DNA of 63,942 nt, filler included, from Dugesia japonica (taxonomy: Eukaryota): assembly GCA_001938525.1 (NCBI GenBank). It is 6 parts of 6 records of this genome, joined end to end, with 100 filler letters (N's around TTAATTAATTAA, not from the genome) between each part and the next. Parts side by side here need not be neighbours in the genome. Positions count along the whole stretch, not along the records: positions 1 to 9,703 come from MQRL01535294.1; 5 more parts are not named here. One strand, 5' to 3'. Below the pieces are notes generated by a model. That model saw only the letters and a list, made by a program, of their open reading frames with translations, was not told the origin of the DNA and made no database searches. A program made the position numbers and the translations under genes. This document shows positions 1 to 55,645 of this stretch, one piece after another. The stretch's first letter is position 1, and each line of letters starts with the position of its first letter.

Positions 1-539
1 TTCAAAAATTACTGGCTAACGTTGCAACAAAAATCAGGTTGATAATTCCTGACAATTTGCCTCACCAGCCGTTGTTGAGCTGATACCGGATTTCAACTAA
101 AACTGTATGTATTTATTTAACACTGCTTGCTATTTGATTTTATGTTCAACAGTCGGGTGTCGTTAATGTAGGATCGTACGTCATAAAACTATGAATGAAT
201 CTNNNNNNNNNNNNNNNNNNNNNNNNNNNNNNNNNNNNNNNNNNNNNNNNNNTGAATCTCCAAAGTGCATACGGATAACCAGCTGTATCTCGATTGATTA
301 TTTCGTAAGAAAATTCATGGTTTCTTTACACATCAGGTACAATGAACAATTTTTAGCGTTATTGTGGATAATTTCATACAATGAGAACATGCATGTGGGC
401 AAATTTATCAGTAGTTAGTCTGTCGAGTCTTTATGTTTACGAAATTGGATAGAGTTAGGGTGACACATTCTCAAACTGCTTGAATTAACTATAATCAGTA
501 GAGTGAAGTTGGCATTCACAAAAGTTGAGTTTTAGTCTT

Positions 540-1686
540 CATTACAAGATAAGAAAATCCCAACTATCCGATAAAAGGCATGGAAACTGTCGGTATATGT
601 GTCCTGATCGCAGATGGAGTTAAACCCCTCATAAGTTAACATGAAAATGTTGTAAGCTATTTCTTTTCTGTAAAAAAAAGTTTTATATAAATAAACAAAT
701 AAAGATATTCCTCATTGTTGTCAAATTTTATTATTAAATTAATTTGTTATATTACATAATTATTCAATAACATCAATTGATACTTACTGCTTGTAATTAG
801 AATATCTGCAACGGTAGGATTTCAAAAAGGAAATGTGAAATAATTTCGATTACGCGTAGTTGATGATTTCTCCTATTCAGTCTTCTTTCGTAGATAGTAT
901 AATATTTCTTTTTAGATTAAATAATTTTCCGCAAGGAGTTTGTTTCTTCTCTAATATGATGTAATATTACAAGTAAAACGTAGAAAAATTGTTGTTGTTT
1001 TTTGCTAAAATTCGGTTGCCTTTTATAGGTTTCCCGATGCAACCCAACTATATTCTTGTTGGTTGGTTATTTTTAATTTGAAATAACCCATTTCTATTGG
1101 TGGTGGTGTTACTGTTCTGGAATTTTGTAGATTTTTCTGTAATTTTGTTGGCAGCTATTTTTGGATCATCAGGTGAGTTTTTGTTCTTTATCTTATTTTT
1201 TAATTCTAGGATACATTTGGATCGATCTTAAAATCTTCGTGACGACCTTCTGGATGGTGGCATCATTTTCTAATGTTGAAAATCGGATAGCTCGGCCCAA
1301 ATCCTTTACTGTTTTTCTTATCCATTCGTTCCAGGATCAAATGGGGCAGAGATATTGCTAGAAAACTGTTTTATAACTAATTTACATTTATTCTTGTTTA
1401 TAATTAATTGATATTTTCACATAATTAATTGTTTTTTCTTGAGTATTTTCCTTTATCCTTCTTAATAATTTAATAATTCTTTTTTAATTATTTTTATTGT
1501 TGCTCTTCAAATTGTTCCATCGAGATCTTTATTTTGCTGCTTTTTTCTTATTTTGATATTTTAGCCATTATCCACTTCATTTTTTGGCTAACAAGATTTG
1601 TCGTGATTGATTCTGTTAGGACTATCGCTCCTACTTGATTTCTTTCTTCTTCTTCCTTATCCATTATTAACCTTGATCCTTGATCG
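540..1686 (-). mobile_element. Decayed gag/ORF1-like retroelement remnant (boundaries approximate)
   Basis: The minus strand near 575-620 reads HLRSGHIYRQFP, resembling a degenerate CCHC knuckle. Shares CCTTCTGGATGGTGG (1246-1260) and weaker flanking similarity with 22950-22964. Many stops. Confidence 0.3.
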
Positions 1687-1924
1687 NNNNNNNNNNNNNN
1701 NNNNNNNNNNNNNNNNNNNNNNNNNNNNNNNNNNNNNNNNNNNNNNNNNNNNNNNNNNNNNNNNNNNNNNNNNNNNNNNNNNNNNNNNNNNNNNNNNNNN
1801 NNNNNNNNNNNNNNNNNNNNNNNNNNNCAATTACACTAAAAACCTTATTGGCTTATTTTTTATCAAGTTAGCTATGCCGCCCATAGAGGTTGGATGCTAA
1901 CTGATAGCTTTTGTCTGAAAAACT

Positions 1925-1960
1925 GAGTGAAATCAGTCAGTATTTACACTGATTTCACTC
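1925..1960. repeat. Perfect 13-bp stem hairpin
   Basis: GAGTGAAATCAGT (1925-1937) - 10-nt loop - ACTGATTTCACTC (1948-1960). Confidence 0.8.
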
Positions 1961-2579
1961 GCATGCAAATCTACATTCAATATACCTTTAACCAATCAAT
2001 TTACAAAGAAAATAAAATTCCTTACTCGAATCAAAATTTAATCAATAATTTTTCCACTCAACAAAATTAATCGTAGAATAAATAAAAATTCAATTGAAAT
2101 AAAAATCAATATTGTATATAAATTTTCTAAAATTAATTATAGAATAAATATTCCAATTGAAAATAAATTGAAAATAAAATCAATATAAATTTCCACATAT
2201 ATAAATTTTCTACAACTAATTTAGACTATAAACATTATCCACAACTTATTTTTTTACAACACACTTCTCTTAGAAAATCGATTAAAAATCTTTTTTAACA
2301 ACTTTTGTATACAATGGATTAATTCAGAACAAATAAAAATAAAAATTGCAATATCAAGTAAATATCCAAATATTAAAATAATAAAGTCTAAAACAATGTT
2401 CTGCGATTGAATCACTTTCTGAATTGTTGAAATTGATTAATCTGAATTGTTGGAATTGATTGATTCTGAGTTTTCTTGAAGGTTTGTTATGTTTATGTGT
2501 GTACCTTGATGATTGTGCATGTTTGTTTCTATGTTGTATGCTCTTTGTGATCTCAAAATTAGGGCAGTTTTGATATTTG

Positions 2580-2717
2580 CATGAGATGAGGAAAAACTCT
2601 ATATTTAGCATTGGATGGGTTAGACTTGATATTTTGCAAGGGATCGGACAGTCTTAATACATATGCTCAGGGTAGTCTAAATATAAATGCTCAGGGTAGT
2701 CTAAATACTTATGCTCA
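2580..2717 (+). repeat. Fragment of the modular repeat family found in the 35.6-39.2 kb foldback arms
   Basis: CTTGATATTTTGCAAGGGAT.GGACAGTCT (~2625-2654) matches ~36194-36222. It is followed by short tandem units ATGCTCAGGGTAGTCTAAATA. Confidence 0.6.
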
Positions 2718-3433
2718 AAGATATTTAAGTTATAGAAATTTCAAAGAATACGACATAAATTAAATTTTTTAAGTTAATTAGTTGAAATAAATAAATTATT
2801 AATAATTATTTTCATGCATTGTTTCAGTAACAGTCTTGTTTGTTGTCCCATTTATCCGCCATAAATACAGACTCATTATTCTGAATAATCGCAGTAAAGA
2901 TTTGCATTAATGTGTCTATTTATTTATATATTCGCAACTATTTGATAAACGAATAATTCATATTTGACAATTTTAAAATTTGATTTCATAAATATATTTC
3001 ACCCTTAATTAGTTCTCAAATATAAACTAATCAGCAACATAATTTATTGTTCTGATAACTTATTGGAAATATAATTAAATGAACTGCCATATTCTGACAG
3101 ATTTAAAATTCAATTTTCGAAATTCTAAATGTGAGAAAATTATTATAAATAGTCATCACAAATTTCAATTCATTATTATTTAAAAATGTTGAAATAAGAA
3201 GTGTTATTTGCATAACGATCACTCATGATAATTGTCTTATTATTTTTTTTATGGGCATTATTTGAATAATCTTCATACACATTATGAGGAGTGCTTGACA
3301 TCATTATAAGTAAATATTTATTGTTAACCAGATATATAGTTGCCACTGTTTTAAATCATTGTTTCACATATTTAGGATATTCAATATAGCGTGCTACGTT
3401 TTTATATCCCACAAACCATTTATTATTGTTTAA

Positions 3434-3906
3434 CCCTTTCAACGCGGTAAACGAAAAAAAACGTTGATCTGAAAAATGCAAATTTTTCATGAAAAATAAA
3501 GTATTCTATAAAATTCTTTTTACTTTTTTTTGAGAATATCATGATTTAATACACCAAAAAATAGTCGTCAAAAAAATATGAAGAAGGATGAAGAGGCAAA
3601 AAAAAGTTTCAAAAAAAACATTTTATTTAATATACTTATATAAAAATAAAATTATATTAATTTACTAAAATATACTATAACAAACTTTTATACTTATTTA
3701 CTACAATATCCTATAAACTACAATATGATAAAATATGTAACAAACATGTATTTTTTTACAAACAAAGTAAATTTTACAGAAAAATTAAAACAATATATAA
3801 TTAAAATTAACATCACGTTTTTTATAAGCAATGGACTATAGTCGATTTACGCCTCGAAGAAGAAAAATAATTCGGGCGACTATAGTCGCTTTACGCGTCC
3901 AAAGGG
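3434..3906. mobile_element. Non-autonomous piggyBac-type MITE
   Basis: TTAA target sites at 3430-3433 and 3907-3910. Termini CCCTTTCAACGCG and CGCGTCCAAAGGG (rc CCCTTTGGACGCG). Subterminal GACTATAGTCG occurs twice. No ORF. Confidence 0.85.
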
Positions 3907-3965
3907 TTAAGGTATCCATCATTACTGAATTTATTCCATGAAATTCAATATTAACTTTAATATAT

Positions 3966-5299
3966 TTATTTTATTTTTTTTGGATCTGGTTGAATGCCAT
4001 TCTTTGATATTACATGACCTTCATATACTACTGAGTCTTTTGCCCAATCACATTTGTATATTTTTATCTTTAGATTTGCTAGTTTTACTCGTTTAAATAC
4101 AATTTCTAGATCTTTTAGATGTTCCTCAAAACTTGTCGAAAATACTATGATATCATCAATATACACTAATGCATGATCTAAGTCCATTAGTATATCATTC
4201 ATTGTTCATAGTATCATTCATAGTGCTCCAGTAAGACCAAAAGGTAGAACATTAAACTCATATAGTCCTCTGCCATCTGTACATGCCGTTAACTTCTTAT
4301 CTGCTTCTGCAACTCTAATTTGTTCATAACCATTTAAAAAATCAATTACTGATATAACTCTTGCTCGATTGATGCGATCATATATCTCTTGTGGAATTGG
4401 TAGTTGTTATGTTTCTTAGTCACACTGTTTAGTTTCCACTAGTCAACACACAATCTTGATTCCCCAGTTTTCTTTTTCGCTGGCAAAATTATAGATGACC
4501 AAGGCGAGAAACGTGACTGTAATATCCCATATTTTAACTTTAAGTCTGTTTGCCTAGTCACTTTCCCTTGATATGCATGAGATATTTTATATGCCTTTTG
4601 TTTAATTGTTATTGAGTCAGTTAGCAGGATCTCATGCTCTATTACGTGAATTCTTCTAAATTGTATGCATGTTTTGCAAATATACACTCGTATTTATCTA
4701 ATAGTTTATTCGTAATTTGTTTTGTTGTTTTGTTAAGATTTTACTATCAACAACTGGCTTACTATACTTTTTAATTTGTGGCGGTATAATTTCATTAGGA
4801 ACTTCGTGTACATGTGGGATATTTCCAATATGTGTTTTACCTTTTAATTTTAAGGATTTATTCGTGAAATTAGCAAATCTGACTGGTAGAGTTTGATCTG
4901 AAATAGTTACAAGTCCATTACACATGGGTAAATCGTGTTTTCTCATAAACGTGTCATTTGGTTCAAACAAAAATTACTCTTCTGATTTATTTGTTGTATT
5001 TGCATAGTATATCATCTTCATTTCAAAGTATTTCATGTGATTTATGAATAATTTCACCAGCAGACTTGATTATTGAGTTTCCCGATTTAAGATCCATCGC
5101 TGCATCATCTAACTGTTCTAATACATCCATGTCAATGAGGCATAATACTGGACTGTCTCTCATTACTAATACGTTTTGAGTTATGACTATACCTCCGACA
5201 CATAATTCTACTTTGATCATACCAATAATATTAAGAGCATTCTTTGACATCGATCGAATAACGTCCTCAGTGCATGTCATATTTATTAAATCTACTGGC
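3966..5299 (-). pseudogene. Ty3/gypsy pol remnant: C-terminal half of protease, linker and reverse transcriptase
   Basis: ORF fragments show CLIDMDVL (protease LIGxD region), IEHEI..TDS..IKQKAY, SPWSS...KKKTGESRLCVD, LYEFNVLPFGL (4230-4265) and the RT catalytic VYIDDIIVFS, followed by GHVISKNGIQPDPKK. Frameshifts and stops throughout. Confidence 0.92.
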
Positions 5300-7361
5300 C
5301 TAGGAGGCAGCCTGACATGCGGCCTCCATACACATATAAAGACCAAACATGAAGTGATATCACGAAAACGAGTTGCGGCTAAACCTGTGTTTGGAACTAG
5401 TTCAAACTCTAATAAGCCTTCTCCAAAAGTTACAAAATATTTTAGAAATACCAAGTACGACTCACTAGCATCGATCCTAGCTAGAATGACAGCACGTAAT
5501 GGACTTCCATTCAGAATTTTTATAACATCCGATGATCTTTGAAAATTACTGAAACCCTTAAATTTAAGGATAAACTTCCAAAATCAGCCACCGCCATACA
5601 AAAATCGTCAATAATTATTGCAAAATCATTCGTCAATTATTACTAAATTCGTCAATTATTATTATTATTATTAATTACTAAACTATCAGATTATAAATCA
5701 AAAAGAATGTGGTTTAGTATTACTTTCGATGAGTGGACCTTTCTAAGGACTCGCCTATACATAAATGTGATTCTTCATTGGGAATCAAAATTTTGGAATT
5801 TAGGACTTCTACGAATCAATGGAAGTTTACCTGCAGTAAAATGTTATGCAGAAAGTAGGCAAATTAGTACCGACTGCTCAGCAATTGTGTTTGGCTCATG
5901 CGATACAACTAGCGGTCATATATGTTCTTTATAAAAAGATAAAACTGAAGATTTAAATAGCAGTCCGAATGAGTCAATTTACATTGAATCTAATCATTAT
6001 GATGCCGTTAAATGAGATATGTATGCATATGAGGATGGATTAGTAATGGATTATGAAATACAGAAACGAGGTACAGACATAACACTTAATCAGCTTGGTC
6101 CGCTTATACAGAATAATTGTGAAAATATTTAAACGTTCACAAATAAAAAATGAAACACTTCAAAATTACGTAAATCTCGAATTTGGCAACGAATATTGCT
6201 CCAAGACTAGATGGAATGGTATATTAGCAATGTTCGACCATTTTCACAGATTAAAATCAAGCATTCAAAAATCAGAGATAGATTTTAAACTAAGTATAAA
6301 TTTTACTGATACAGATTTTGAAATAGTTTCAGTTACAATCTCAGCATTTTTGCCGGTAAAATTAGCTGTTGAGTCACTATGTTGCGAAGACGCCAATTTA
6401 CTATCTGCAGATACTACGATCAAATTTATATTTGATAGGCTAAGTAAAATTAAGTCATCACTGAGTGAAGAACTTCTAAGTGCTTTGAAAGAACAGAATT
6501 GTCTGATCTAATTTGTTATCTGCATAAAGCTCTTGGAGATGATAGTCAAAAAGCGTCCAAAAAGAAATACAAACCTTTTAAATTTCAATTTTCCTCGTGT
6601 ATCAAAAACAAGTATTCTCAATTCACTGTTAATCAAATGGGACTTTGGAATCAAAACACAGCTCCTGAAGAGCGGGCAGATGAAATGATAGATTCAGAGG
6701 TCAGTGACGCTGAGGTTGATGAAACAACAGAAAAGTCTGAAAATTTATTGAAGAAGCAGTTAGACGTAGCCATTTTGAAACAAAAAAATTTTAAAGTCGG
6801 AAAACTACCAGAACACGGAGGGTATTCAACCAAATGCCTTAAAAAAGAAATGAGCCTGCTTGAAAATGAAGGTGTGCTGGATAAATATCTCCAACAGATT
6901 TAAAAACTTCTTTTAAAGGTTAACCCAACCAACGTTGAATCTAAAAGGGCTTTTTAAAAGGTATAATTTTAAATAAGTTGTGATGCATAGTGGATGACAT
7001 AACTTTTGATGCTCTTTGTTTTTTAGGAGAGTATTTCAAAGGAAATAAATAACGATTTGATAACTATTCTACAAAATAGACCAGCAAAATGTTTATTGAA
7101 ATATATTTTAATGAATTGTGATTTTTAAGTTCCTTATGTTTAATTTAATTATTATTTTAATGAATTATTTTTATNNNNNNNNNNNNNNAAATAAATAAAT
7201 GTAAATTTTTATACATTACCAATAAAAATATGAATAATTTTTGAAAAAGTGTGATTCAATTAATTTCTTTGAATACCAGTTTTAATACCGGTACACCGGT
7301 ATTATAATTCATTATTACCAAAGTGCCGGTATTGGTTTTTCGTCCGGTATTGAATTTCATA
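5300..7361 (+). mobile_element. Decayed Ac-type hAT transposon inserted into the gypsy protease
   Basis: Transposase fragments SITFDEWT..RLYINV, SKTRWNG, NLLSAD and PTNVESKRAF (~6924-6955). The right end has CCGGTA subterminal repeats. Degenerate 8-bp TSD CTACTGGC (5292-5299) / CTCCTGGG (7362-7369), 6/8 match. Confidence 0.85.
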
Positions 7362-7490
7362 CTCCTGGGTCTAAACGTTTCTCTGATATAATGGTTACAC
7401 TAGAATCTGAGTATAATATGACGTTTAAATAAATTCCATTTAATTGTACAATAATTTTTGGTTGTCGGCCGAAAGTTTGACCGTCATTAA
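7362..7490 (-). pseudogene. N-terminal half of the gypsy aspartic protease
   Basis: The minus strand reads QPKIIVQLNGIYLNVILYSDSSVTIISEKRLDP (decayed LDSGS active site). It continues as VDLINMTC... at ~5295 once the hAT is removed. Confidence 0.75.
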
Positions 7491-7585
7491 TACGTAATTG
7501 TTGGGTAATCCCATAATATTCCTCCTTTTCCTTTTGACATCCACTTTTCTTCTCTCATTACTAAATTTATTAATTTCGATTGGTT

Positions 7586-8478
7586 TCATTTCTTTGGCAG
7601 TTGTAGATGATAATTTGGTTTAAATGAACATAATTGTTTGAATGAAATATCTTCTATAATTATCTCTGGGAGACGGTTTGTTTTATAAGTACTCCATTCC
7701 TCAACATGCAATAAAGTTTGAGTGTTATTTATAACAATATACATAGTAACTACAGTGCTAGTATCTACATTGCTTTGGTTTTCATTTACGGTACTTTCAC
7801 TTTGATATTTGACCGGTTTCCGCCGGTTTCGTCGTTTTCTCTTCATGGTTTTGCTTATCATCTGATACTTGATCAATACTATTATCCATTTCTTTAAATT
7901 GATGATTAAGAATTTTGCAAGAAATGGTATACATTCTACAATTAATTTCAATAAGATGCCGAAAATAGTATATAGTCTGTAAGTAGATAATACTTGATTA
8001 ATAAGATGCCGAAAATAGTATATAGTCTGTAAGTAGATAATACTTGATTAATTGAAAACTTTGTAATTTTCCATAACAAATACACTCTTATTAACCATTG
8101 TCCGACGAAAACCTGATAAATATAATATGGTATGTTTATCTCAGTTTTCAGTTTTAATGGATAAGCTCTTTGACACTCCACTACATCGACTAATGAATAA
8201 ATGTTTTCTATTTCGGTTTGAGAACAGCCATAAACTGTTAGTGACGTTGTATAATTAACCAAACTAATCATAACAATCATTATCAACAACCACAGTGAGA
8301 TGCCTCCAAAATTCTTTGAGAATAAAAGTTTCTTCGTTTGACTTGTTTTTCGATTCTCCAGAAATTCCCATCCTCCTTGTTTTTGAATAAACGGATAAAT
8401 GTATTTCAATATTGTTTTTGTTATTTCCTCAATCATATTCTCAAGATTTCTGCAATCAACTGAAATATGAATTCCCAT
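7586..8478 (-). pseudogene. Extra retroelement ORF: Bcl-2 BH2-like motif, hydrophobic helix, envelope-glycoprotein-like N-terminus and a basic RRNRRKPVKY segment, frameshifted by a 50-bp duplication
   Basis: YIYPFIQKQGGWEFL resembles BH2 (WIxxxGGWxxF). ISLWLLIMIVMISLV is TM/signal-like. LTVYGC...YSLVDVVEC resembles the YDC...SLLDVxxC start of chuvirus-type/retroelement env glycoproteins. ORFs 7948-8478 and 7586-7951 become one frame when the duplication is removed. Confidence 0.45.
7951..8050. repeat. Perfect 50-bp tandem duplication
   Basis: ATAAGATGCCGAAAATAGTATATAGTCTGTAAGTAGATAATACTTGATTA at 7951-8000 and 8001-8050. Confidence 0.97.
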
Positions 8479-8559
8479 CTGTTGAATTAGAAATAATTAA
8501 ATTAATAATTTTAAATAATAATTAAATAAATAATAATTGTTAATAATTAATTAATTTTG

Positions 8560-9380
8560 TTCGACATTTACTTGCAGTATATCCTTTAGTTTGGCACCTG
8601 AAGCATGTTACAGTTCTTTCTGGAGATATTTATTGAGAATTGCAGTTCCTTTCAAATTTTGGTGATTGTCTATTATTTCTCGATGATGATAGGTTGAATG
8701 TTCTTGTATGTTTGAAATATGATTTTACTTTAAAGTTTAAATTTTTCTGATCTAGGTGTTTGAAATCTCTGCATCTCAGTATAATGTTCTGTCGTGGTTA
8801 TTGTTTTTACTTCAATTCGCATGGCCTTTTTGACTATATCATCAAAATCTTGGTAAGCCGCTAAACTAAGAGCTGTTCTAATGTTCTGATGAGTTACCAT
8901 TAAAAATTGATCTTGCAAAATTCTTCTGATATGATCTCTCCAATTTTCTCGTAAAGCGAAAGTTTTTCAGCCAAAGTGCTTAATTCAAATGTCAAATCGT
9001 TTACAGATTTATTTTCATTTCGAACTAGTTTATAGAATTTCTTTATCATAAATCTGACATATTTACTGATTAATTGCTCAGCTAATGTATCTTTACAATG
9101 CGCCAAAGTATACAATTGTACTGCATTTAATTCATTGATGAATATATGCATCTCTGGATGTACCCTTTAAATAAAGTGGTAAGCTTATTACTATAAATGT
9201 TTCTGGCCATCCATAGGCTTTACTGTGCTATACTATACTGTACTTTATTATAATAAGCTCTCATGAGATCCACAAAATTCAGAGAATTTCCTCCATACAA
9301 AGCTTAAGGTAATTTTTGAAAATTAGACCCATTATTTACATTGCCGTCTTCAATAATATTGACGTTTTCCTCCATATCAC
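8560..9380 (-). pseudogene. Ty3/gypsy gag remnant with CCHC-type zinc knuckle
   Basis: The minus strand 8605-8564 reads CFRCQTKGYTASKC (CX2CX4[H>Y]X4C). Gag-like FYKLVRNENKSVNDLTFELSTLAEK and QDQFL...FDDIVKKAMRIE segments are present. Confidence 0.8.
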
Positions 9381-9518
9381 TATTGTTTTTAATTTTAATC
9401 TCTCGATTTCTCAAATTACATTGCCGTTCTCCGACAACTTGCTTTTTCTTGTTTCTTGGCACTGGAACTTTGATTAATTAACAATTGATGAATATTCTTC
9501 TAGTTCCAGCAATTATCG

Positions 9519-9536
9519 ATCACGTCGGGCTCATTA
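9519..9536 (-). promoter_or_regulatory. Primer-binding site (tRNA-Trp type) of the gypsy element
   Basis: Plus strand ATCACGTCGGGCTCATTA matches the eukaryotic tRNA-Trp 3' end ATCACGTCGGGGTCACCA at 15/18. It lies a few nt from the LTR-like CA end at 9541-9542 and upstream of gag. Confidence 0.75.
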
Positions 9537-9540
9537 GTTT

Positions 9541-9703
9541 TGTTAGTTGTTTTCAAATAATAAGTTTGAATATACCCATAGTTATTTATATTTTCATTAT
9601 ATAAATTTACATATAAAATATAACTTAAAGACTTTAATTAAAATAAAACTTTTATTTCGTTTAAAATTTTCATTTAAAATTTTTATCGGTTAAACTAATC
9701 TCA
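9541..9703 (-). repeat. Probable partial 5' LTR, truncated by scaffold end
   Basis: Ends in ...ACA on the minus strand immediately before the PBS. No second LTR is visible in the window. Confidence 0.45.
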
Positions 9704-15173: not shown

Positions 15174-15647
15174 GCATTCATATTTTATTTATATTTGCCA
15201 CAAAATTTCAATTTTGACAAAACTGCTTTCATAAACTGCTAATAAAATTATTTCTGACAACTGAAAATTAATATTTTCACAAAGTTAATTTACTTTTCGT
15301 TATTTTAGAAAACNNNNNNNNNNNNNNNNNNNNNNNNNNNNNNNNNNNNNNNNNNNNNNNNNNGAGACAAAATAAAACGTTTAAATAATTTATATTGCAA
15401 TGATGATTTAGAATTAAATTAAGATGTCAATTAATTACTGGCTTGATAAATATCTGAAAATTTATATACGATTCATATTTCATTCATGTGATTCGTAAAT
15501 GATGCATGCATTCATATTTTATTTATATTTGCCACAAAATTTCAATTTTGACAAAACTGCTTTCATAAACTGNTAATAAAATTATTTCTGACAACTGAAA
15601 ATTAATATTTTCACAAAGTTAATTTACTTTTCGTTATTTTAGAAAAC
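15174..15647. repeat. 140-bp direct duplication (15174-15313 = 15508-15647) bounded by gaps, probably an assembly artefact
   Basis: The copies are identical apart from an N. The first copy is flanked by N runs and duplicates the RIM splice acceptor. Confidence 0.8.
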
Positions 15648-15988
15648 CTTCAAGCCTCAACGATAACCAAGTTGGAGTTTTTGTTGAAGGTTTAGGTCCA
15701 GGCCAACTTGTTGGACGACAAGTCCTTGGAATGCCTTCCTTAGGAGAATTACAATTAAGTTTTATTGACAAGAAAGGTCGTTTAGATATTGAAGTTATTC
15801 GAGCGAGAGGTCTGACACCCAAAACAAACTCTAAGGTTCTACCACAACCATATGTGAAAATCTATTTGATGGAAGGCAAAAGTATTATTGAAAAACAAAA
15901 AACTTTAGTTTCACCTCGACGGACTTTGGATCCGCTTTATCAACAACAACTTTCCTTTTCATCGGAATACTCAGGCAAAGTTCTGCAG
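15643..15988 (+). CDS. RIM: RIM exon, N-terminal part of C2B domain
   Basis: FVEGLGPGQLVGRQVLGMPSLGELQL...LDIEVIRARGL.PK...LPQPYVKIYL...KQKT...RRTLDPLYQQQLSF...GKVLQ is diagnostic of RIM C2B. Splice sites TTTTAG| and CAG|GTTCGT. Confidence 0.95.
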
Positions 15989-16518
15989 GTTCGTAAATTG
16001 CACTTTATTTTTTTTTATTTATTTCACTTGCAATATTTTAACATTAAATACCTCACAATTCTCCAGCTATTAATTGTTAAGATTTTAAATATACATTACA
16101 AATTAGCCTATAAGCAAAACATCTAAAATTTTTCAATTTTAAAATATCAATGACTTATTAGCTAATCAATAAGACTAAAATTCTTTGAAAAGTAGAAAAT
16201 GATTTGTTAAATAATTAATAATAAATAAAATCTATTTTAGTCATAAAACCGCAGGTATATAATAATAAGATATTTTTATATCAAATAAAAAAAAATTTTC
16301 AAAATCCATAAAATTATTTGTAATCCAAATTATAGGGCATAATCAATTAGGAGGAATCAAGTTTCTTTCAAAAAATATGTTGAAATTATTTTCCTTCACT
16401 AGTTATGATTTAATCTAACAATTATTTGTCTTTTTCTTATAGAAAAATAAACAGTTAAATGAAATAGTAAAAATCAAAATTATTCTCGTAAAAAAATTAA
16501 AATCAATTAAAAATTGTA

Positions 16519-16618: not shown

Positions 16619-17278
16619 ATACTGAATATTGGATGACTAATCTACAATCGATAAACGAACTAAATAATGAAAGANATCGTAATATTATTTATGTTACTTT
16701 TATTTTCTGGAATTTCAATTATTCAATCGAATACTTCATTAATTGTGCATTATGAAGAGAATTTACTGTTCGGCAAAATTTTTCCTTAAATTTCTTTTAA
16801 AATTTTCATAATTTTAAATTCATTGTCGATCATATCTGTGATCTTGTTAATAGGACTAATTGCGTTGACTTGCAACTTATCAATAGCGCTGGGAAGCGCA
16901 TAATCTTACTGGATGTGAAGACANNNNNNNNNNNNNNNNNNNNNNNNNNNNNNNNNNNNNNNNNNNNNNNNNNATACTGAATATTGGATGACTAATCTAC
17001 AATCGATAAACGAACTAAATAATGAAAGAAATCGTAATATTATTTATATTACTTTTATTTTCTGGAATTTCAATTATTCCATCGAATACTTCATTAATTG
17101 GGCATTATGAAGAGAATTTACTGTTCGGCAAAATTTTTCCTTAAATTTCTTTTAAAATTTTCATAATTCTAAATTCATTGTCGATCATATCTGTGATCTT
17201 GTTTATAGGACTAATTGCGTTGACTTGCAACTTATCAATAGCGCTGGGAAGCGCATAATCTTACTGGATGTGAAGACA
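16619..17278. repeat. 305-bp direct duplication (16619-16923 vs 16974-17278) across a gap
   Basis: The copies differ at 5 positions counted by eye and are separated only by an N run. Confidence 0.85.
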
Positions 17279-18797: not shown

Positions 18798-19133
18798 TTA
18801 TATGTCTTCCAACACACCAGGATCTAACCACTGATTCGGGTCAGTCTCCCAAAAGACAAACGCGGCTATATCGTCATTGTCCTCCCACTGCGTCCACACA
18901 GGGTTTCCCATTTGGCTGGACAGGTCGGCTATGTATTGCTTTAAGAAGTCTATCTTTCGTTGTAATATTTGTTGGTTTTGTACTTCAAGAGCCATGGTTT
19001 GAGCAGCCAAATCACTTTGTTTTTTAACTATTAAATCTAATTTCTTTATTAATCGGTTCCTCTGGGTGAGATGTCTTAGAAGGGCCTGTTTGGTCTTACG
19101 CTTTAAATGGCGTTCTAACAATAATCGACGCAT
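18798..19133 (-). CDS. Orphan ORF, basic coiled-coil N-half and acidic Trp-rich C-tail
   Basis: MRRLLLERHLKRK...QQILQRKIDFLKQYIADL...WTQWEDNDDIAAFVFWETDPNQW. GC-richer than the flanks. Acceptor-like TATTTAG ends at 19181. Confidence 0.5.
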   Translation of the reverse strand: MRRLLLERHLKRKTKQALLRHLTQRNRLIKKLDLIVKKQSDLAAQTMALEVQNQQILQRKIDFLKQYIADLSSQMGNPVWTQWEDNDDIAAFVFWETDPNQWLDPGVLEDI

Positions 19134-19314
19134 AATCCGNTGACACCTTCGCAAACTTGTTGAGAATACAATTCGTGGCACTAAATAATTAAACATTAAC
19201 CACAAGGAAGAAATAATAAATATTATCGTTATTGAATTATTCAAAATTTTAATGATACAATGCATAAACCAAGACTACTACGTAAAACAATTTTTTATTT
19301 GCAGAACAGAAGAT

Positions 19315-19682
19315 TTAGATACGAGGACCGGGCTTTGTCTGGGTGCCCTTATCAACCATGAGAGGTTCGAGGTATGATTTTTCNTTAAGGTGTAAAATGT
19401 CTTTGACCAGTTTATTTTCACGGTCATGGCTGGACCGGATGATCTCGGTGAACGACTTTACCTGTGATTTCCGCACTCTCTCTTGGTCGTGTGCAACTTC
19501 CATCTCTTTGCGTACCTTAATACATTTATTCTTATAACGCTTCACTTTTGCGTTGGCAGTGGCTATCTCAGCTTCGAATCGACGTTTCGCTAGTCGATAT
19601 AACTCCCAGGACATTTCGGTGTCCCCGCTGGATTCTCTCATCTGTTTATTAGGGGCCGGTGGACGGTTTAATGACGAGTGCA
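19315..19682 (-). CDS. Orphan coiled-coil ORF with C-terminal KGTQT motif
   Basis: Open frame of ~122 codons (first ATG at 19641) with helical charged content. DKGTQT lies near the end. AATAAA at 19299-19294 just after the stop. Confidence 0.5.
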
Positions 19683-19830
19683 CTATAACATAAATATAAT
19701 AAAATTATGGAATCCAATTAAAACTGTTTATAGTCCAAAAAGCCAAAGTAGAACAGGGTTTTAACTAATCAAACAATAAAAGACAGAGAAAACCAATTCT
19801 TAACCAAAACTTTATTTCTAATAAGATGGG

Positions 19831-20229
19831 TCATACCGACACCTCGAAGACTTCTTCACTAGAGTTTTCATCATTATTGCTGGACATACCATTACGGGCA
19901 TCCCATAAATAGTTTTTTACGAAGGAAGATAGTTGCGAGGTTGAGGGTAAGCGATTCGTGGTGATACCGATCAAAGATGGACCATCATGCCATACTCGTT
20001 CTACTTGTGGCACCTCGGTGGATCGCTCAAAAGAAAGTGGTGCCGATGGGAAGGCGACTCTATCTCTCCTCGGGCCACACCAACTATAATAGGCTTCCCT
20101 CTCAGTTGCATCCCATTGCCGATCTGCTGTGCGTTGTTCAACAGGAACATTGGAACGATCTAGTAATACACTGGCATACACAGGGATTTTGATACCGCCG
20201 GAATACAGTTCGACCGGAACGGGTGTCAA
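19831..20229 (-). CDS. Orphan ORF (start uncertain)
   Basis: 132 open codons with elevated GC. AATAAA at 19816-19811 after the stop and TATATAAAA upstream at ~20339-20331. An in-frame TGA at the 5' end suggests decay or splicing. Confidence 0.4.
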   Translation of the reverse strand: MTPVPVELYSGGIKIPVYASVLLDRSNVPVEQRTADRQWDATEREAYYSWCGPRRDRVAFPSAPLSFERSTEVPQVERVWHDGPSLIGITTNRLPSTSQLSSFVKNYLWDARNGMSSNNDENSSEEVFEVSV

Positions 20230-20490
20230 TGCTCACTTTCCATTTGTATTCCATGTGCAACGGTCCTAGATTAGAAATTATTCAGGTTTTCATTTGAACT
20301 GCAAAACAGAAGTGTGACATGCAGATCTTATTTTATATAACTAAACACAAGTCATAACAATAAGTCGATTTATTTCGCAAGATTGTTACTCAGTTAAAAC
20401 CACATGCAAAATTGTAATTAGAGATCGGTGGAAAATCAAACATTTATGCCTACAAGCTATCTCGCCCGAATTCGCTCCTAGTCCGCGTTG

Positions 20491-26435: not shown

Positions 26436-26481
26436 CTAAATTTTAAAAAAATATTTAAATAAAACCAATAAACAAATTCAC

Positions 26482-27065
26482 TTCTTCGATTTAAGGTTTT
26501 TGTCTCTCTGCCTTCGATTTTTAAACCAATTACTAATTTGATCTTTATTTAATTCTGTTTGTTCAGCCAAATAAGATTTTTCTTTAGCGTTAGGGAACGG
26601 TGATTTCTCATACAATTCTTTCAATAGTTTTCTTGTAGTTTCTTTAAAACAATAACTAGTTTCTTCGCCGTCCCATATTGTTCTAGGAAGTGGAAATCTT
26701 TTACGGATTCGATATTTTGATACAGAAGACAGTAGCTTTTTTTTTGAAAGTTGAGCTTCTTCATAATGAGCATTATACCATAATTCTTGAAGATATTCAT
26801 AATTTTTTGTAGAAAATTGAAAACTATTAATTATATTATACATTTCAGAAAATTTTTGATTTTGAAAATATCTCGAAATTTCTAAAAGAAGCATATTTTC
26901 TGTTTGTTCTTTATGAAAATTAAAATTATAATTAAACGCCTCATTGTTGAAAACAGGAATTTGTTGATAAAGATTATTATACTGGAAATTCTGACAAAAA
27001 TTTGAGTAGGCTGCTGGCAATTGATGGTAATTTGTTAATGGTAGATGAAAGTAATTTGAGGACAT
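26482..27065 (-). CDS. Six1/2: Six1/2 (sine oculis) homeobox protein, exon 1: partial SIX domain and homeodomain
   Basis: LQELWYNAHYEEA...KYRIRKRFPLPRTIWDGEETSYCFKE...QISNWFKNRRQRD. The ETSY tetrapeptide marks the Six1/2 class and the homeodomain is K50. Donor AA|GTGAAT at 26481. Confidence 0.95.
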
Positions 27066-27103
27066 TTTAGAAATGTAAGACGATTTTAATTTCACTTATT
27101 ATA

Positions 27104-33759: not shown

Positions 33760-34860
33760 CTTCTCTACGTTTAATTCAAGACTTTCCGTTTTTATCTTCA
33801 AGAATATAACGTCTGTCGTGAACTTTTCCTTTGATCTTATAGGGTCCTTCAAAACGATCTTGGTTCATGTTTCTTGTTTCAACTTTATCTAAGAACTCAT
33901 CACCAACCTAAAATTTTCTTTTGGTCAATATCTGTTTATCTTTTTCTGTAGGTTGTCTTTGAGAATCTGTTTGTAGCATTTTTCTCTGCTTATTCTCTTT
34001 CTAAATACGATTTCAGCTGGGCTTTTCCCAATGGTATTCTGATTTGTAGCATTCAAGATAAATTCTATCTCCTGCAATACATTAAACTATCTGAAGTTTT
34101 CCTTTCTTTACGTGTCATATGTATCATATCCAGCATAGTTCTAAACTGTCTCTCGATTTGTTCATTTGAGTCATGATGATATGGACTCAAAAACCTGATG
34201 GTAATTTTATGTTCAGCTGCAAAATCTTTCATTGATTTTGACTCTTCCACCATCAACTCGAATTTCTACTGGACACCCGAATTTTAATATCCACTTCTCT
34301 ATTATTGCTTTCCGTATGTTATCTTCACCATGTCTTGTCATTTCTATCAAGGCTACATACTTACAACATTGATCTATTATACTGAGAACATTTTTATCGT
34401 CTTTTTTTTATCTAGAACATTTTTATCTAGTCTCCAGCAGTGACACACATCTATAAATAACAGTTCAAAAATTAAGGCTGGTTGCGTCTTTTTTGTTTCT
34501 TTATTCGTTTTTGTTGTCAACACTTTAGCTTTCTGGCATATTATACAGATTTGGACAATCTCTTGTACTTTGCTCCACAAATGTTTCACGTTATATTTAT
34601 GCTTCATATACGCTGCTACCGTTTCTTTTCCGGCATGACACAAAAGATGATTTATCTTCATTATAAATTGTTAAACATTATCATCAGGTATCCATGTTCC
34701 TTCATCCTTTTCTCCAAAATGGCCTTGTTTTCCTTAAATATCTACTGTATTTAACATCCTTCTTTTTAATTTTCCACTTTTGGGGTCTTCATGTGACATT
34801 TGATATTGTGAACATGTATTGCATTTACTCCTTGACAACATATCCGCATTTACATGAAGC
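33760..34860 (-). pseudogene. Ty3/gypsy integrase remnant
   Basis: HHCC finger HLLCHAG...QICIICQKAK, core SPYHHDSNEQIERQFRT and GPY/F motif RFEGPYKI (~33835-33860). Confidence 0.88.
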
Positions 34861-34932: not shown

Positions 34933-37491
34933 ATTTTTTCTAAGATTTTTCGGATCAAAATTTTTTTGATCGGATCAAATTTTTTTAGATCCTGGTGGTG
35001 TGTGTCTTTTTAAATTTTTAAATTTGTATGTGTTTGAGCTGTTAAGGTGGTTTTTAAAAAGTAAGTCAAATTGAGTTTGTGTGTGTGGTTGTGTGTGTAA
35101 GAAGGAATTTGGACTCGAGGTTGAGCTGGACATCTTGGAAATAGTTTTTTTGAAGTTTTTAAGATCTGGTTGTTGTTGGACAAAAATCTGGTCTATATAT
35201 TGTCTAAAGGACTTATGAGGTTGCATGTATTGTTCATCCTATAAGTTTAGTAGCGAACGATGACAGTCGTATAAGTTATCGCGGGGTGTTTTTAATGAGG
35301 CTGTAGGTTTGTATGTGGTTGATGGATTTTGTTGGTTGATATGTTGTTGAAGAGACAATGTGATAGAGAAAATGTTTGATGTCGATTGTGACTTAATTTT
35401 GTGAATTATAGTGCTTGAATTTGATTGGTTGATTTTTGTAAGTAGTATAAGTGTGTTAAAAAAAATTCGGGAGGAGGAGAGTGGTATGTGTGGAAAGATA
35501 ATTAATTATCGGATTTTTTGATAATTATTTGAAATTTTTTTGCCGCGCAAGTTTGACGTCATAATGTTTTGAAATCTTTATTTTGGTTAAAAATGCTGTA
35601 TTTTGATTAAAATGATGATTTAGAAAAAAGTAATGGTATTTTGTAAAAATGATGTGTTTTTAAATATTTTTTGAGTATTTTTGAACAGGGAAGCTTTGTT
35701 TTCTAAAATATTTTGAGAGAAGTCTTCATATTTCTTTTTTGGCAGGAAATTCAAAAATTTATTTTGTCATGGGAAATTAAAACATTTTTTGAGCAGACTT
35801 TATATTTATGTATGAGATAGAGCAGTCTTGATATTTAGCATGGGGAGTTTTTATATTTCATGGTATTTATGCATGGTATGGGCAGTCTTGATATTTATGA
35901 ATGGTATGGGCAGTCTCTTTTTTTTACATGGTATGGACAGTCTCTATATTTTATATGGTATTTCTGCATGGTATGGGCAGAATATACTATATTTTACATG
36001 GTATAGGACAGACTTGATATTTTTGTAAGAGTTTAGACAGTCTTGATTGAAGCATTATAATTATTTTTCTTTATATTTTACTTTAGATGTGTCAGTCTTG
36101 ATATTATTGCAGGGTATTGGGTAGTCTTGATATTTATAAGAGATTGAGGAATTATTGATTTTTTAAAAAATATTTTGCTTTAGGTCGAACAGTCTTGATA
36201 TTTTGCAAGGGATGGGACAGTCTACAATTTATTGACATGTGATTTTCGTTGTATGTGTGTTGCATATGAGTTACATCTGAGTTGAATACCTTTGTGATAT
36301 TTACTTGATAAAATATACAAGTAAAAAACAACTTTTTTCATAAAAAAACATATTAGTTGGGTAATTTTCTATAAAAAACATATTACTAGTGACCATTTTT
36401 TATAAAACATCTCATTAGCGACGCAATTTTTAATAAAAAATATCATTAGTGATGCAATTTTTAATACAAATTCTCATTAGCGATACAATTCTAAATAAAA
36501 AATATCATTAGTCATGCAATGTTTAATAAAAACATATTAGTCATGCAATTTTTTCTATAAAAAAACATATTAAATGAGAACATAAAAAATGATAAAAAAC
36601 ATACAACTTTTTTCATAAAAATCATAATTTCATGGAACCTTGCCATGTATAACTAATGAATCTATATAAAAAAACCTATAAGAAAATATTTTTTATGAGT
36701 GTATAGGGTTTATGAGTATATTATTTGCATAGTTAACTTGTATTATAGGGTTTACGAGTTTATAATTTGCATAGTTACCATGTATTATTTACACAGCAAC
36801 CATGTAATAAAGGAATAATAAGTGTATTATTTTCATAGTAACCCTGTATTATAGGGTTTATGAGTATATTATTTGTATTATTTATAAAGCAACTGTTTAA
36901 TATAATGCTTATGGTAGTAATATTTATATAGCAACCCTATATTTCAGGGTTTATGAGTATAGTATTTACATATTAACCGTGTAATAAGAAGTCCCCATGC
37001 AATATTTTAGATAACAAATCATATCATTTAAAATAATTTGCATCCAATCATATTAATCAAAATGAATAATAACCATTCATTTCCTTTAAAAAATGTAACG
37101 ACCAATAAAAACTAACAAATAACGAGTATAGTAGATAGATAGTAGCGCACTGGCACAATTTTTAAGCAGTTATCGCGCGACCCCTCATATTTCATCCTTC
37201 AGGAGGAGGGTCTCGGTTATAGGTAAGATTGTGCTCGTTTTTAGGGGGTTATTTTTTTCTAAGATTTTCGGGATCAAAAAAGTTTTGATCAGATCAGTTT
37301 TTTTATCCTAGGGTTGTGTATGTGTATTTTTAATTTTTAAATTTTGTGTACGTTTGGGTTACTAAGGTGGTTTTTAAAAAGTAGGTCAAGTTGAGTTTGT
37401 GTGCATGGGTGTTTGTATGTGTGAAAGAAGGAATTTAAACTCGAGGAGAAGCTGGAGATCTTGGAAATAATTTATTGGGGGTTTTAAAGAA
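34933..37491. repeat. Diverged direct repeat (~34933-35165 and ~37253-37491)
   Basis: Both copies read TTTTTTCTAAGATTTTCGG.ATCAAAA...AAGGTGGTTTTTAAAAAGTA.GTCAA...AAGAAGGAATTT..ACTCGAGG...GCTGGA.ATCTTGGAAATA. Confidence 0.85.
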
Positions 37492-39214
37492 TTTTTTTGG
37501 CGGGAAATTCAAAAAAAATAATTTTTTGCAAGGAAATATGAAAAACTATTTCTTTTGGCTGGGGAAATTTGCAATTTGATTAAACTAAATTAAATTATGT
37601 ATGAAAATTTTGGCGAGAAATTTAAAAAATTTCTTTTTGGGCGGGAAGTTTAAAAAAATATTTTTTTTGAAGGGGAAATTTTTAATTTAATTAAAATTAA
37701 TTAAATTTCTTTTGAAAAGACTATATTTATGAATGAGATGAGACAGTCTGGATATTTTGGATATTATAAATTCATAAACTCTATAATACAAGTTAACTAT
37801 GCAAATAATATACTCATAAACCCTATACACTCATAAAAAATATTTTCTTATAAGTTTTTTATATAGACGTATTAGTTATACATAGAAAGGTTCCATGAAA
37901 TTATGATTTTTATGAAAAAGTTGTATGTTTTTTATCATTTTTTTCTAAGAACTGTTCTCATTTAATATGTTTTTTTATAGAAAAAATTGCATCACTAATA
38001 TGTTTTTATTAAAAATTGCATCACTAATGATATTTTTTATTTAGAATTGCATCGCTAATGAGTTTTTTATTAAAAATTGCAACACTAATGAAATTTTTGA
38101 TAAAAATTTTATCACTAATGATATTTTTTCTAAAATTTTGTAATTAGTAATATGTTTTTTAAAGAAAATTACCTAAATAATATGTTTTTTATGAAAAAAG
38201 TTGTTTTTTATTTGAATATTTTATCATGTAACTATCGCAAAGACTCTCCTCTTTGGTTATTTTTAATACATTGAAAATCACGTGCCTAGGAATTTTTATT
38301 AATAAATGCAATAGGTATGCAACCCAGATACCATGAGAATGCAACACACATACACTAAAAATCAAGTGTCTGAAAATTTTTAATAAATTTCCCACCAAAA
38401 AGAAATTTTTAAAACTCAAAATAGCCGCCATTTTGAATTTTTTTAAATAAATTTTTAATAAATGCAATAGGTATGCCACTAAGATATAACTCATGTGCAA
38501 CACACATACAATGAAAATCACATGTCAATAAATTGTAGACCATCCCTTGCAAAATATCAAGACTGTCCGATCTAAAGCAAAATATTTTTNAAAAAATCAA
38601 TAATGCCTTAATCTCTTATAAATATTAAGACTACCCAATATCCTGCAATAATATCAAGACTGACACATCTTAAGTAAAATTTAAAGAAAAATAATTATAA
38701 TGCTTCAATCAAGAATGTCCAATCTCTTTAAAAAATATCAAGTCTGTCCTATACCATGTAAAATATAGAGACTGCCCATACCATGAAAAATATCAAGACT
38801 GCCCATACTATGCAGAAATACCATATAAAATATAGAGACTGCCCATACAATGTAAAAAAAAGAGACTGCCCATACCATTCATAAATATCAAGACTGCCCA
38901 TACCATGCATAAATGCCATGTAAAATATAGAGAATTCTTCATACCATGCCAAATATAGAAACTCTCCATGCTAAATATCAAGACTGCTCTATCTCATACA
39001 TAAATATAAAGTTTGCTCAAAAAATGTTTTAATTTCCCATGACAAAATAAATTTTTGAATTTCCCGCCCAAAAAACTTTATTTGAATTTCCCGCCAAATA
39101 AAATATCAAGACTTTTCTCTTCCTGGTTTAAAAAATTTAAAAACAAAGCTACCCTGTTCAAAAATACTATTACTTTCATCTGAATCATCATTTTAAGCAA
39201 AATGCAGCATTTTA
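35588..39214. mobile_element. Foldback-like structure with long modular inverted arms (~35588-36765 and ~37763-39214)
   Basis: The arms are reverse complements, for example 35760-35845 vs 38965-39055. Each contains tandem arrays of ~27-bp GGTATGGGCAGTCTTGATATTT units and ~30-bp CATTAG.GATGCAATTTTTAATAAAA units. No transposase ORF. Confidence 0.85.
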
Positions 39215-53650: not shown

Positions 53651-54094
53651 TTAGATCAGAATCTCTTTCTTTGCCTTCTTCTGTGCTGTTGCGTTTATCA
53701 GGAGTGCTGCTATTAAAGACTCTCTTGACAGATTATGACTAAGCAGTTTATTTGCCAGTTTTTCTACATCATGGAAGAATACCAAATTATTGGTATCACC
53801 CTGCCTGTAACGAATGAATTCTTCTAGGTCTTCAAAAACGTCTCTTGGTCTTTCCACCAGTAATTGTAGCCTAGTTTCATACCCCTTGACTTTGTTTTCT
53901 GATGTTTCATACCTTTCTTCTAGTTTCGGGTCAATCATCTTGCCGATTACAATCTCTTGTAAATCTTTGGGAATTTTAGCCGCTTTGAAGAATCGACAGA
54001 CGTCTCTCAAGAATATGTCCCGATTGTCGCCTAAATTGAAAGGTCTCGGGTGTAACAAATCTGTTACTAAGTTTGAGCCTGGTGTGGTTGCCAT
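53651..54094 (-). pseudogene. LTR-retrotransposon gag fragment, 3'-truncated
   Basis: MATTPG...PRPFNLGDNRDIFLRDVCRFF...EFIRYRQGDTNNLVFFHDVEKLANKL resembles the retrotransposon gag RQxxxE region. It ends next to a Buster-type TIR CAGTGATTCTCAA at 53580. Confidence 0.6.
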
Positions 54095-55645
54095 ATTAGC
54101 CAGAAAAACACTATCCTCACCCAACATTTATTTAAAACAAAGTTACTATGACTTGAAAAACTGGATTAGAAAAGTTTTAAAATTCAAACAAATAGGCGCA
54201 ATTAATATTTTAATTTTTTTCTTTAAATACTTTAAATTTTATAAATATTTTAATTACGCATATAAATTCGAAATTAAACAATTCAAATATCATTCTCACA
54301 GCGACTATTGATAATCTCATATTATTTATAATCTCTATTTGATGTTCATCCTTTTGAAATATTCACTATTTTGATGATGGCCATTTTGAAGTATATCTAA
54401 TTTTCAACGATATAGATCAAATTAGAAACTACGAAAAATCAGATAAAACCAGAAAATTGATTTTTAAAAAATTAAATTTTTATTCATAATATAAGAACAA
54501 TAATCAAATATTAATTTAAATACTATTACAATTAAAAAGAAAACAACATTAAAATAATAAAAAATAAATTAACGACGAAATAAAAATTGTGACCAAACAA
54601 AATATGTAATTAATAAATAAATAACAAGGAAGAACTAAATAGTAGAATATTAACTGAAAAGGCGGAAACTGAAGAAAAAACAGTGTAATACGAATGCAAC
54701 TATGTAAATTGATTTATAACTCTTTCACTTCTTTTAAAATAAATACACTTTTTTGAAAAACCCCAATATATTTTTTAAATAAAAACTCCAAACAAATCAT
54801 TGTTTTATCTATGTAATATTTTTACTTTGAAATAATTTTCAACTTATAAACTGACACAAATTAAATTTTTCTCTTAATCAGAAGCGACATAGTTAAGTAG
54901 GGTTTATATATATATATTATATATATTTTATATTATATTTTATATTATATATATTTATAAATATTATAAATAAAAATATTATAAATATTATATAAATATT
55001 ATATATATTTTATTTTCCAATAATATCAATTCTCAACTTGACAGTCATGATATTGCTAATTTCCAGTTTCAGTGACGAAAAAAATTTAAACGACAATTTA
55101 TTGCTTTTCTACAAAAACTATAAACAAAAACAATCTATTATTGAATATTATTATTTCTTTCAAAAAATTCAGCAACATAATCGATTCAGAATTTCATAAT
55201 ATTTAATAATTTATTAGTATTAGAAAGTATAAAGTTTTACATGAAAATCAAATTTTATGTCTATTTTCATGATGGCCACTTTAAAGTAGTCGCTATTTAG
55301 TGGTCCCCATTTTTGCCGTAAACCATAAATTTATATAACTTTGTGTTATTTAGTCCTCAAGTTTAAGAAACACAAGATATGATTTGTGAAATTTTATTTT
55401 TATATATTATTGTTTTTTCGTTGTTAAATTATAAATTTTTACATATATATGTGGCGTTTTCCTACAAATAACACTACTTCGGAATATAATNNNNNNNNNN
55501 NNNNAATATAATTAGTAATAATTTGGAATATAATTAGTAATATTTTCGAATATATTTAGTAATATTTTGAAAAATATAGTAATAGCACTGTAACATAAAA
55601 ATGAAAACAATCTATAAATTAAACGCAAATTTTAAATAATAAATT

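Follow-up and report, generated by a model that had tools for sequence, protein, structure and literature searches.

Planarian genomes contain giant gypsy-like LTR elements, Burro/GYPSM1, for which the order gag-BCL2-env-protease-dUTPase-like-RT has been described; passages of PMC6431247, which cite Jurka 2007 and Grohme 2018 for these elements, describe them as the first example in which env lies between gag and pol. GAG-ENV-POL elements with a gB-type Env are reported from flatworms, nematodes, and bryozoans in sections of PMC13524379, six of them in Schmidtea mediterranea (Smed_errantivirus_1-6, present in 1 to 215 copies); the string "Bcl" has no occurrence in the main text of that paper, and Bcl-2 goes unmentioned in passages of PMC12440569 and PMC8532177. 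The capture of a chuvirus-type glycoprotein as env by an LTR element, a likeness to the locus described below, is also seen in the Anakin / BEL-Pao elements, although these belong to another superfamily and have insect hosts (passages of PMC7642597 and PMC12440569).

In the current study, we analyzed a window of 63,942 nucleotides of Dugesia japonica DNA, filler included (GCA_001938525.1; six parts joined end to end, with positions 1 to 9,703 from MQRL01535294.1). A sequence-only reading had picked out, on the minus strand, an extra open reading frame (ORF) of about 0.9 kb between the gag and protease of a gypsy element, and had proposed that it encodes a Bcl-2-like domain joined by a hydrophobic helix to a chuvirus-type envelope protein. 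We are highly confident that what remains here is the middle of a dead Ty3/gypsy retroelement, now collapsed, and that element was likely one of the planarian Burro / GAG-ENV-POL kind. The copy is a remnant of that kind and not an intact member, and the "0.9 kb extra ORF" is likewise a remnant and not a separate gene. The proposed combination does hold for the family, whose intact relatives, as judged from their sequences, have both a gB-type envelope protein and, ahead of it, a Bcl-2-like domain inserted between Gag and the protease, but it is not new: the gag/Bcl-2-like/Env/protease layout has already been published for planarian elements (in the part of PMC6431247 that treats Burro/GYPSM1), and the copy itself is decayed.

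The locus resembles Burro/GYPSM1 in having a Gag with a CCHC knuckle, a BCL2-like domain, a mononegavirus fusion glycoprotein-like Env, a protease, and an RT, with a candidate dUTPase-like motif between the last two, and decayed fragments occur there too (same source, in part). In both, the BCL2-like domain lies directly before Env, in the window as a remnant. Those passages of PMC6431247 describe Burro/GYPSM1 as exceeding 30 kb, with long LTRs, and as encoding one polyprotein of about 4,900 aa in which there are 2 to 3 knuckles and MATH, ubiquitin-like, BIR, and ankyrin domains. The window copy shows one knuckle and none of these four domains, but the region where the upstream ones would lie has been lost from it and it stops short after RT; its gag-to-protease span has been reduced by deletions to about 1 kb. 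With Smed_errantivirus_1-6 the locus shares an Env that is of gB type and lies between gag and pol, and on visual comparison window positions 8130-8080 look like the beginning of Env in Smed_errantivirus_1 and _2; those elements, however, are intact with no primer-binding site (PBS) assigned, whereas the window copy is dead and has a decayed Trp-like one (sections of PMC13524379). The window holds a Ty3/gypsy-type RT, an env between gag and pol, and an Env remnant whose relatives are of gB/class III type, while intact open frames and a full Env ectodomain with its cysteine pattern were not found in the window copy. Both the family name and the single-frame parent are drawn from relatives at 32 to 41% identity, no intact parent having been retrieved, and are therefore given as probable.

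Results

The ORF starts at an ATG at 8478 and remains open to 7951 on the minus strand (176 aa), and a second open frame on the same strand extends from 8047 to 7586. When 1.84 billion proteins were searched with HMMER at a threshold of E ≤ 0.001, 11 matches were obtained (the P-numbered relatives), all within aa 14-125 of the ORF. Ten of these are envelope proteins of the gB/chuvirus type; P0007, a beetle protein with repeats around its GGW, was regarded as a chance match and was left out of the alignments. The Pfam Monjiviricetes fusion family (PF24664) was matched by 9 of the 11, in six cases above the cut-off and with E values down to 2.7e-95, and Pfam Bcl-2 by two (0.00096 and 0.012). P0008, in which Gag, a CCHC knuckle, a full Env, and a protease occupy one frame of 1352 aa, also matched retroviral protease (0.0018). 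A weak model of P0003 (pLDDT 52.6) matched chuvirus glycoproteins at 5e-24 and herpesvirus gB at 3.6e-7, with TM scores of 0.1-0.2, whereas the AlphaFold model of P0006 (pLDDT 39) was unusable; the Bcl-2-like region is helical in both of these low-confidence models. The profile and structure check on the relatives accordingly bears out the earlier identification of the YGC...SLVDVVEC stretch as the start of a chuvirus-type Env.

Other searches were blank. Word-index protein searches returned nothing with the ORF and only P0003 itself with P0003 aa 1-200, no usable lead came from the ESM Atlas with either the ORF or P0006 aa 20-150 as the query, and eight pattern matches among viral contigs included no relative. 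Metagenome contigs gave 0 of 110 for P0012, and the one locus found for P0004 (1 of 163) was bacterial housekeeping DNA and was discarded as a false match. With the whole 176-aa frame, Pfam gave at best a trace match, in which the beginning of the Monjiviricetes fusion family was hit at E 3.6. The word-index, Atlas, and viral results, together with this E value, are what one would cite for chance motifs, or for an unrelated insertion or mis-assembly between gag and protease, but such a reading must contend with the HMMER relatives and their Monjiviricetes and Bcl-2 matches, with the tblastn map and the profile described below (E 5.5e-5), and with zero-difference contigs from two studies that cross the junctions. 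The relatives and the spanning contigs rule out mis-assembly and unrelated insertion, and we consider the probability of the reading as a whole to be vanishingly small.

The Bcl-2-like C-terminal remnant (8362-8496, minus strand) comprises the end of helix 5, helix 6, and the GGW of BH2, as judged from Pfam, an alignment with three relatives, and a profile. Residues 11-37 match positions 74-100 of the 100 in the Pfam Bcl-2 profile (E 0.012-0.018); for aa 1-45, Bcl-2 is the best Pfam match (E 0.018; 16 bits against a cut-off of 31.4), and it was not seen with the whole 176 aa as the query. Every single-sequence match to Bcl-2 falls below the Pfam cut-off. A profile of the three relatives plus the window piece matched Bcl-xL at E 5.5e-5, with 59 of the 60 matches listed belonging to the Bcl-2 family, and P0003 aa 9-80 matched Bcl-xL/Bcl-2 from helix 4 to BH2 (E 0.01). 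A PDB sequence search with aa 1-45 found nothing, and the one PDB sequence match to the ORF, N-WASP, was set aside as chance. The BH2-like motif FIQKQGGWEFL occurs once in the window and in none of 100 order-3 Markov windows, as does YGC..SLVDVVEC, in both cases with a pattern that was written after the motif had been seen. The sequence-only reading was correct that a BH2-like motif is present and that BH1 upstream of it is missing from this copy; BH1 has been deleted.

The ATG and the supposed splice acceptor in front of it likely lie inside former Bcl-2 coding sequence, because the gap between the zinc knuckle and the frame is short compared with that of the relatives and because the codons before the ATG keep the register of helix 5. 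In the window, the knuckle and the start of the frame are 67 nt apart. In P0008 the knuckle lies about 300 residues ahead of Env, and in P0002 over 1300 (1313) residues precede the GGW. In an alignment, the six codons before the ATG match helix 5 of three relatives without a shift of register, although they raised neither the Pfam nor the pairwise scores. One could instead suppose that the acceptor and ATG at 8479/8478 open a separate spliced gene for a short protein in which Bcl-2, TM, and Env parts are fused and a second BH1 lies downstream. A CAG with an AT-rich stretch does precede the ATG, and the frame is open for 176 codons, but acceptor-type sites are plentiful (the window has 17 instances of CAGATG and 599 of a branch-point-plus-AG pattern), so that the acceptor at 8479 is no sign of splicing; moreover, the relatives hold these domains inside long frames, the helix 5 register runs upstream of the ATG, other copies among the contig matches listed follow the window as far as 8494 and then diverge, and the supposed second BH1 is the end of Env (see below). 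A protein with BH2 alone, furthermore, could not fold as Bcl-2. We therefore view a separate spliced gene as very unlikely. The earlier claim of an extra ORF between gag and protease survives as to frames and position but not as to a separate 0.9-kb ORF.

The remnant runs in the order Bcl-2 tail, Env signal helix, first 40-50 Env residues, a deletion of about 490 residues, and Env C-terminal end. The hydrophobic helix (8245-8313, minus strand; about aa 56-78 of the 176-aa frame; hydropathy up to 2.18), which had been noted from the sequence between the Bcl-2-like and Env parts, is likely the Env signal sequence and stands at the same place in all the env-type relatives. Next, at 8093-8241 (minus strand), comes the beginning of an Env ectodomain of the gB/chuvirus type, of which 40-50 residues are kept, with a frame break after 8113. 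The tblastn matches to this Env start end at 8113 in 10 of 11 cases and at 8110 in the other, and similarity resumes in another frame at 8116-8093, where none of 2000 shuffles scored as well against P0012 and P0004; this frame-shifted similarity was not significant in shuffles against P0003 or P0008. At 7586-8085, likewise on the minus strand, lies the post-deletion part, an Env C-terminal end with a hydrophobic helix and basic tail plus a linker to the protease, which aligns with P0008 1110-1165 and P0003 696-736. The two Env anchors are 562-567 aa apart in P0003 and P0008 and about 69 codons apart in the window; therefore, about 490 Env residues are gone. It is this C-terminal end that had been taken for a second BH1-like stretch: it aligned with the end of Env in P0008 (score 96) and in P0003, at 0 and 1 of 500 shuffles, respectively, found no alignment support against P0002 (54 of 500), and had no Pfam match, and the BH1 interpretation was abandoned. 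Between the two frames, a 50-nt exact tandem duplication (7950-8052, minus strand; exact copies at 8052-7953) shifts the frame.

In short, what survives in the window copy is the final third of the Bcl-2-like domain, the signal helix of Env, and the first 40-50 and last residues of Env; the copy lacks the stretch from the knuckle to helix 5 of Bcl-2 as well as the roughly 490 Env residues. It carries stops, frameshifts, the 50-nt duplication, and an inserted transposon along with its deletions, in agreement with the decay that had been read from the sequence.

Contigs of four runs (X1, X2, X5, and X8) from three studies were compared with positions 7200-9700, 32 of 2461 records being listed. 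Among the matches listed, zero-difference contigs from two studies, with a depth of 5-8, span the window junctions. The gag-spacer-ATG junction is crossed by X2 8410-8742 (with X2 record 13 showing 0 differences there), the Env deletion is spanned in X1, a run that may come from the sample behind the window and that has a zero-difference contig at 8023-8391, and the junction of tail, protease, and insert is spanned in X1 and X2 (X2 7281-7607). The layout of the window is therefore real DNA, at about single-copy depth. Among the matches listed, some zero-difference contigs break off at 7979 and others begin at 8023, a pattern that would be expected at a real tandem repeat.

Other copies behave differently. 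Among the matches listed, they leave the window sequence at 8494 in X2, X5, and X8 and at 8093, the latter continuing for 227 (X2) and 244 (X5) letters at a depth of about 38; there are also indels at 8113 and 8233 and, in another copy, a joint of 7478 with 7594 that brings the tail close to the protease. Related contigs occur on all 30 bins in X1, X2, and X5. Summed depth, although no measure of copy number, greatly exceeds the single-copy level across gag, the Env start, and the protease, and fits a multi-copy family; the high contig depth at 8460-8560 was put down to low-complexity matches and disregarded. The coverage of all 30 bins and the 7478-7594 joint would both suit a short form that had been amplified as a non-autonomous subfamily, keeping both membrane helices and mobilized by intact elements. 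This is nonetheless very improbable in our judgment, given that, among the matches listed, the contigs across the window junctions have a depth of 5-8 like unique DNA while the copies at a depth of about 38 leave at 8093, and given the many stops and frameshifts throughout. As a separate observation, run X8, which bears a second species label, has related copies on 26 of 30 bins, and these leave the window at 8494 and at 8093-8114.

The outer parts of the element were also found on the minus strand. The stretch at 9537-9703, which ends in CA, precedes the PBS, has high summed contig depth at 9552-9700, and adjoins an assembly gap upstream, is likely the 3′ end of the 5′ LTR; blastn found no second LTR within the window. 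The decayed tRNA-Trp PBS (9519-9536), whose match presumably extends beyond the 12-mer, agrees at 9 of 12 positions (9536-9525) with the Trp_CCA 12-mer, but 13 sites in the window match equally well, so that the call, already made from the sequence, rests on its expected position. The 12-mer was taken from supplement 1 of PMC13524379. The gag remnant (8552-9480), with stops and frameshifts, aligns in pieces with P0008 Gag (9 of 1000 and 3 of 1000 shuffles, and 187 of 1000 for a third piece); a Pfam search of the window gave no gag match. Its zinc knuckle at 8564-8605 aligns with the CCHC of P0008 and is where it had been placed, but its form is C-x2-C-x4-Y-x4-C, with Tyr replacing His. Between the knuckle and the Bcl-2 remnant, at the first deletion junction, lies an AT-rich spacer (8495-8551), at the edge of which, 8494, the contigs of the other copies mentioned above leave the window sequence; positions 8480-8560 are 94% A+T.

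The first half of an aspartic protease, with a decayed active-site motif, was confirmed from 7490 onward (7360-7490, minus strand; aligned with the P0008 protease, 0 of 1000 shuffles), although a Pfam search gave no match for it. The protease region is split by a plus-strand insert at 5300-7350 (ends approximate), a DNA transposon fragment; two of its pieces match the transposase-like ORFs at 59.2-59.9 kb, with none of 1000 shuffles doing as well for either piece. We take the insert and the related ORFs to be hAT-like, a label that Pfam and PDB did not support. Beyond it, at 4800-5290 (minus strand), lie what are likely the second half of the protease and a dUTPase-like spacer, on the basis of candidate motifs (the dUTPase-like one at 4973-4800); this segment had no Pfam match, and 795 of 1000 shuffles did as well against the end of P0008. 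The truncated Ty3/gypsy reverse transcriptase remnant (3969-4690) lies on the minus strand; 4403-3969 matches Pfam RVT_1 at 5.7e-20, and its best PDB matches are Ty3 RT (1.6e-22 and 8e-22). It probably belongs with the gag-Env-protease part upstream, across the inserted transposon. Remains of all the parts of the order LTR-PBS-gag-extra ORF-protease-RT were recovered, the LTR and PBS as probable assignments, except that RT does not directly follow the protease, the insert of about 2 kb intervening.

Discussion

A GGW or QGW occurs shortly upstream of the Env signal helix in P0002, P0003, P0005, and P0006. P0008 and P0012 cover the same position without a GGW, and because of this the Bcl-2-like domain is not family-wide. 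Nor do we know of any Bcl-2 domain in Anakin / BEL-Pao elements. As in Bcl-xL and Bcl-2, helix 4 to BH2 can be aligned and a hydrophobic helix follows, and the BH2 motif is present in the window; unlike in those proteins, the domain is embedded in a retroelement polyprotein, BH2 alone survives in the window, and NWGR is not kept. Bcl-2 and Bcl-xL depend on the Gly and Arg of the NWGR in BH1 to bind BH3. In all three relatives that cover BH1, the alignment shows the region to be present with its motif changed and NWGR absent, and the classical anti-apoptotic role suggested for the domain in the sequence-only reading is uncertain because of this loss.

For intact members, we propose that one polyprotein would be made from the genomic RNA, and that cleavage by signal peptidase where the hydrophobic helix ends would release a class III fusion protein into the ER lumen. 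The helix left behind would then anchor a cytosolic Bcl-2-like domain in the membrane, much like the tail anchor of Bcl-2; what we observed is the adjacency of the two. The domain would most likely damp a death or alarm response of the producing cell during particle formation. The window copy can make neither a folded Bcl-2 domain nor a fusogen. A further, tentative possibility, to which we give rather less than even chances, is that flatworm-type GAG-ENV-POL elements have turned the Env signal helix into a tail anchor for a captured Bcl-2 domain with a rewired BH1 groove, such that each Env made would leave behind a membrane-bound regulator of death or immunity. From the sequences, this module would be present in some diverged lineages (P0002, P0003, P0005, P0006, and the window copy) and absent from others (P0008 and P0012). 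If true, this reading concerns the family and not the dead window copy, and the domain order is in any case already in print. Whether a retrotransposon Bcl-2-like domain alters host cell death is a question raised in a passage of PMC6431247, and it is sharpened by the loss of NWGR and the patchy presence of the domain. We found no functional test of such a domain in the literature, though Grohme 2018, Repbase, and supplements may hold more. For annotation, the locus is a caution, as its deletions have made a remnant look like a small additional gene that begins at a start codon of its own.

Additional Observations

Remains of other mobile elements lie elsewhere in the window. The insert at 5300-7350 (plus strand), within the protease region, and a segment at 58987-59904 (minus strand) are two related, decayed transposase-like fragments. 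An integrase zinc-binding fragment of another LTR element is found at 34377-34670 (minus strand; 5.5e-5), and an ORF at 53651-54127 (minus strand) is presumably gag-like and of another LTR element. Nested long inverted repeats occupy 35709-39100, with arms of up to 229 nt that are 89-95% complementary and with 31- and 42-nt subrepeats; this region has a foldback-like look, and a piece of the repeat also occurs near 2600.

The rest of the window has the look of AT-rich animal DNA, in which host sequences include a SIX-class homeobox gene at 26478-27095 (minus strand; Pfam SIX1_SD, 3.3e-23; homeodomain, 2.5e-12) and an exon with a C2 domain at 15623-16126 (plus strand; 3e-10), which we take to be RIM-like. 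Near-identical direct repeats of 140 and 300 nt, with spacings of 334 and 355 nt, lie at 15174-15647 and 16619-17273 and are possibly assembly duplications. Finally, three tandem ORFs of 129-158 codons at 18798-20232 (minus strand), which had no convincing Pfam match, are coiled-coil-like and of higher GC content.
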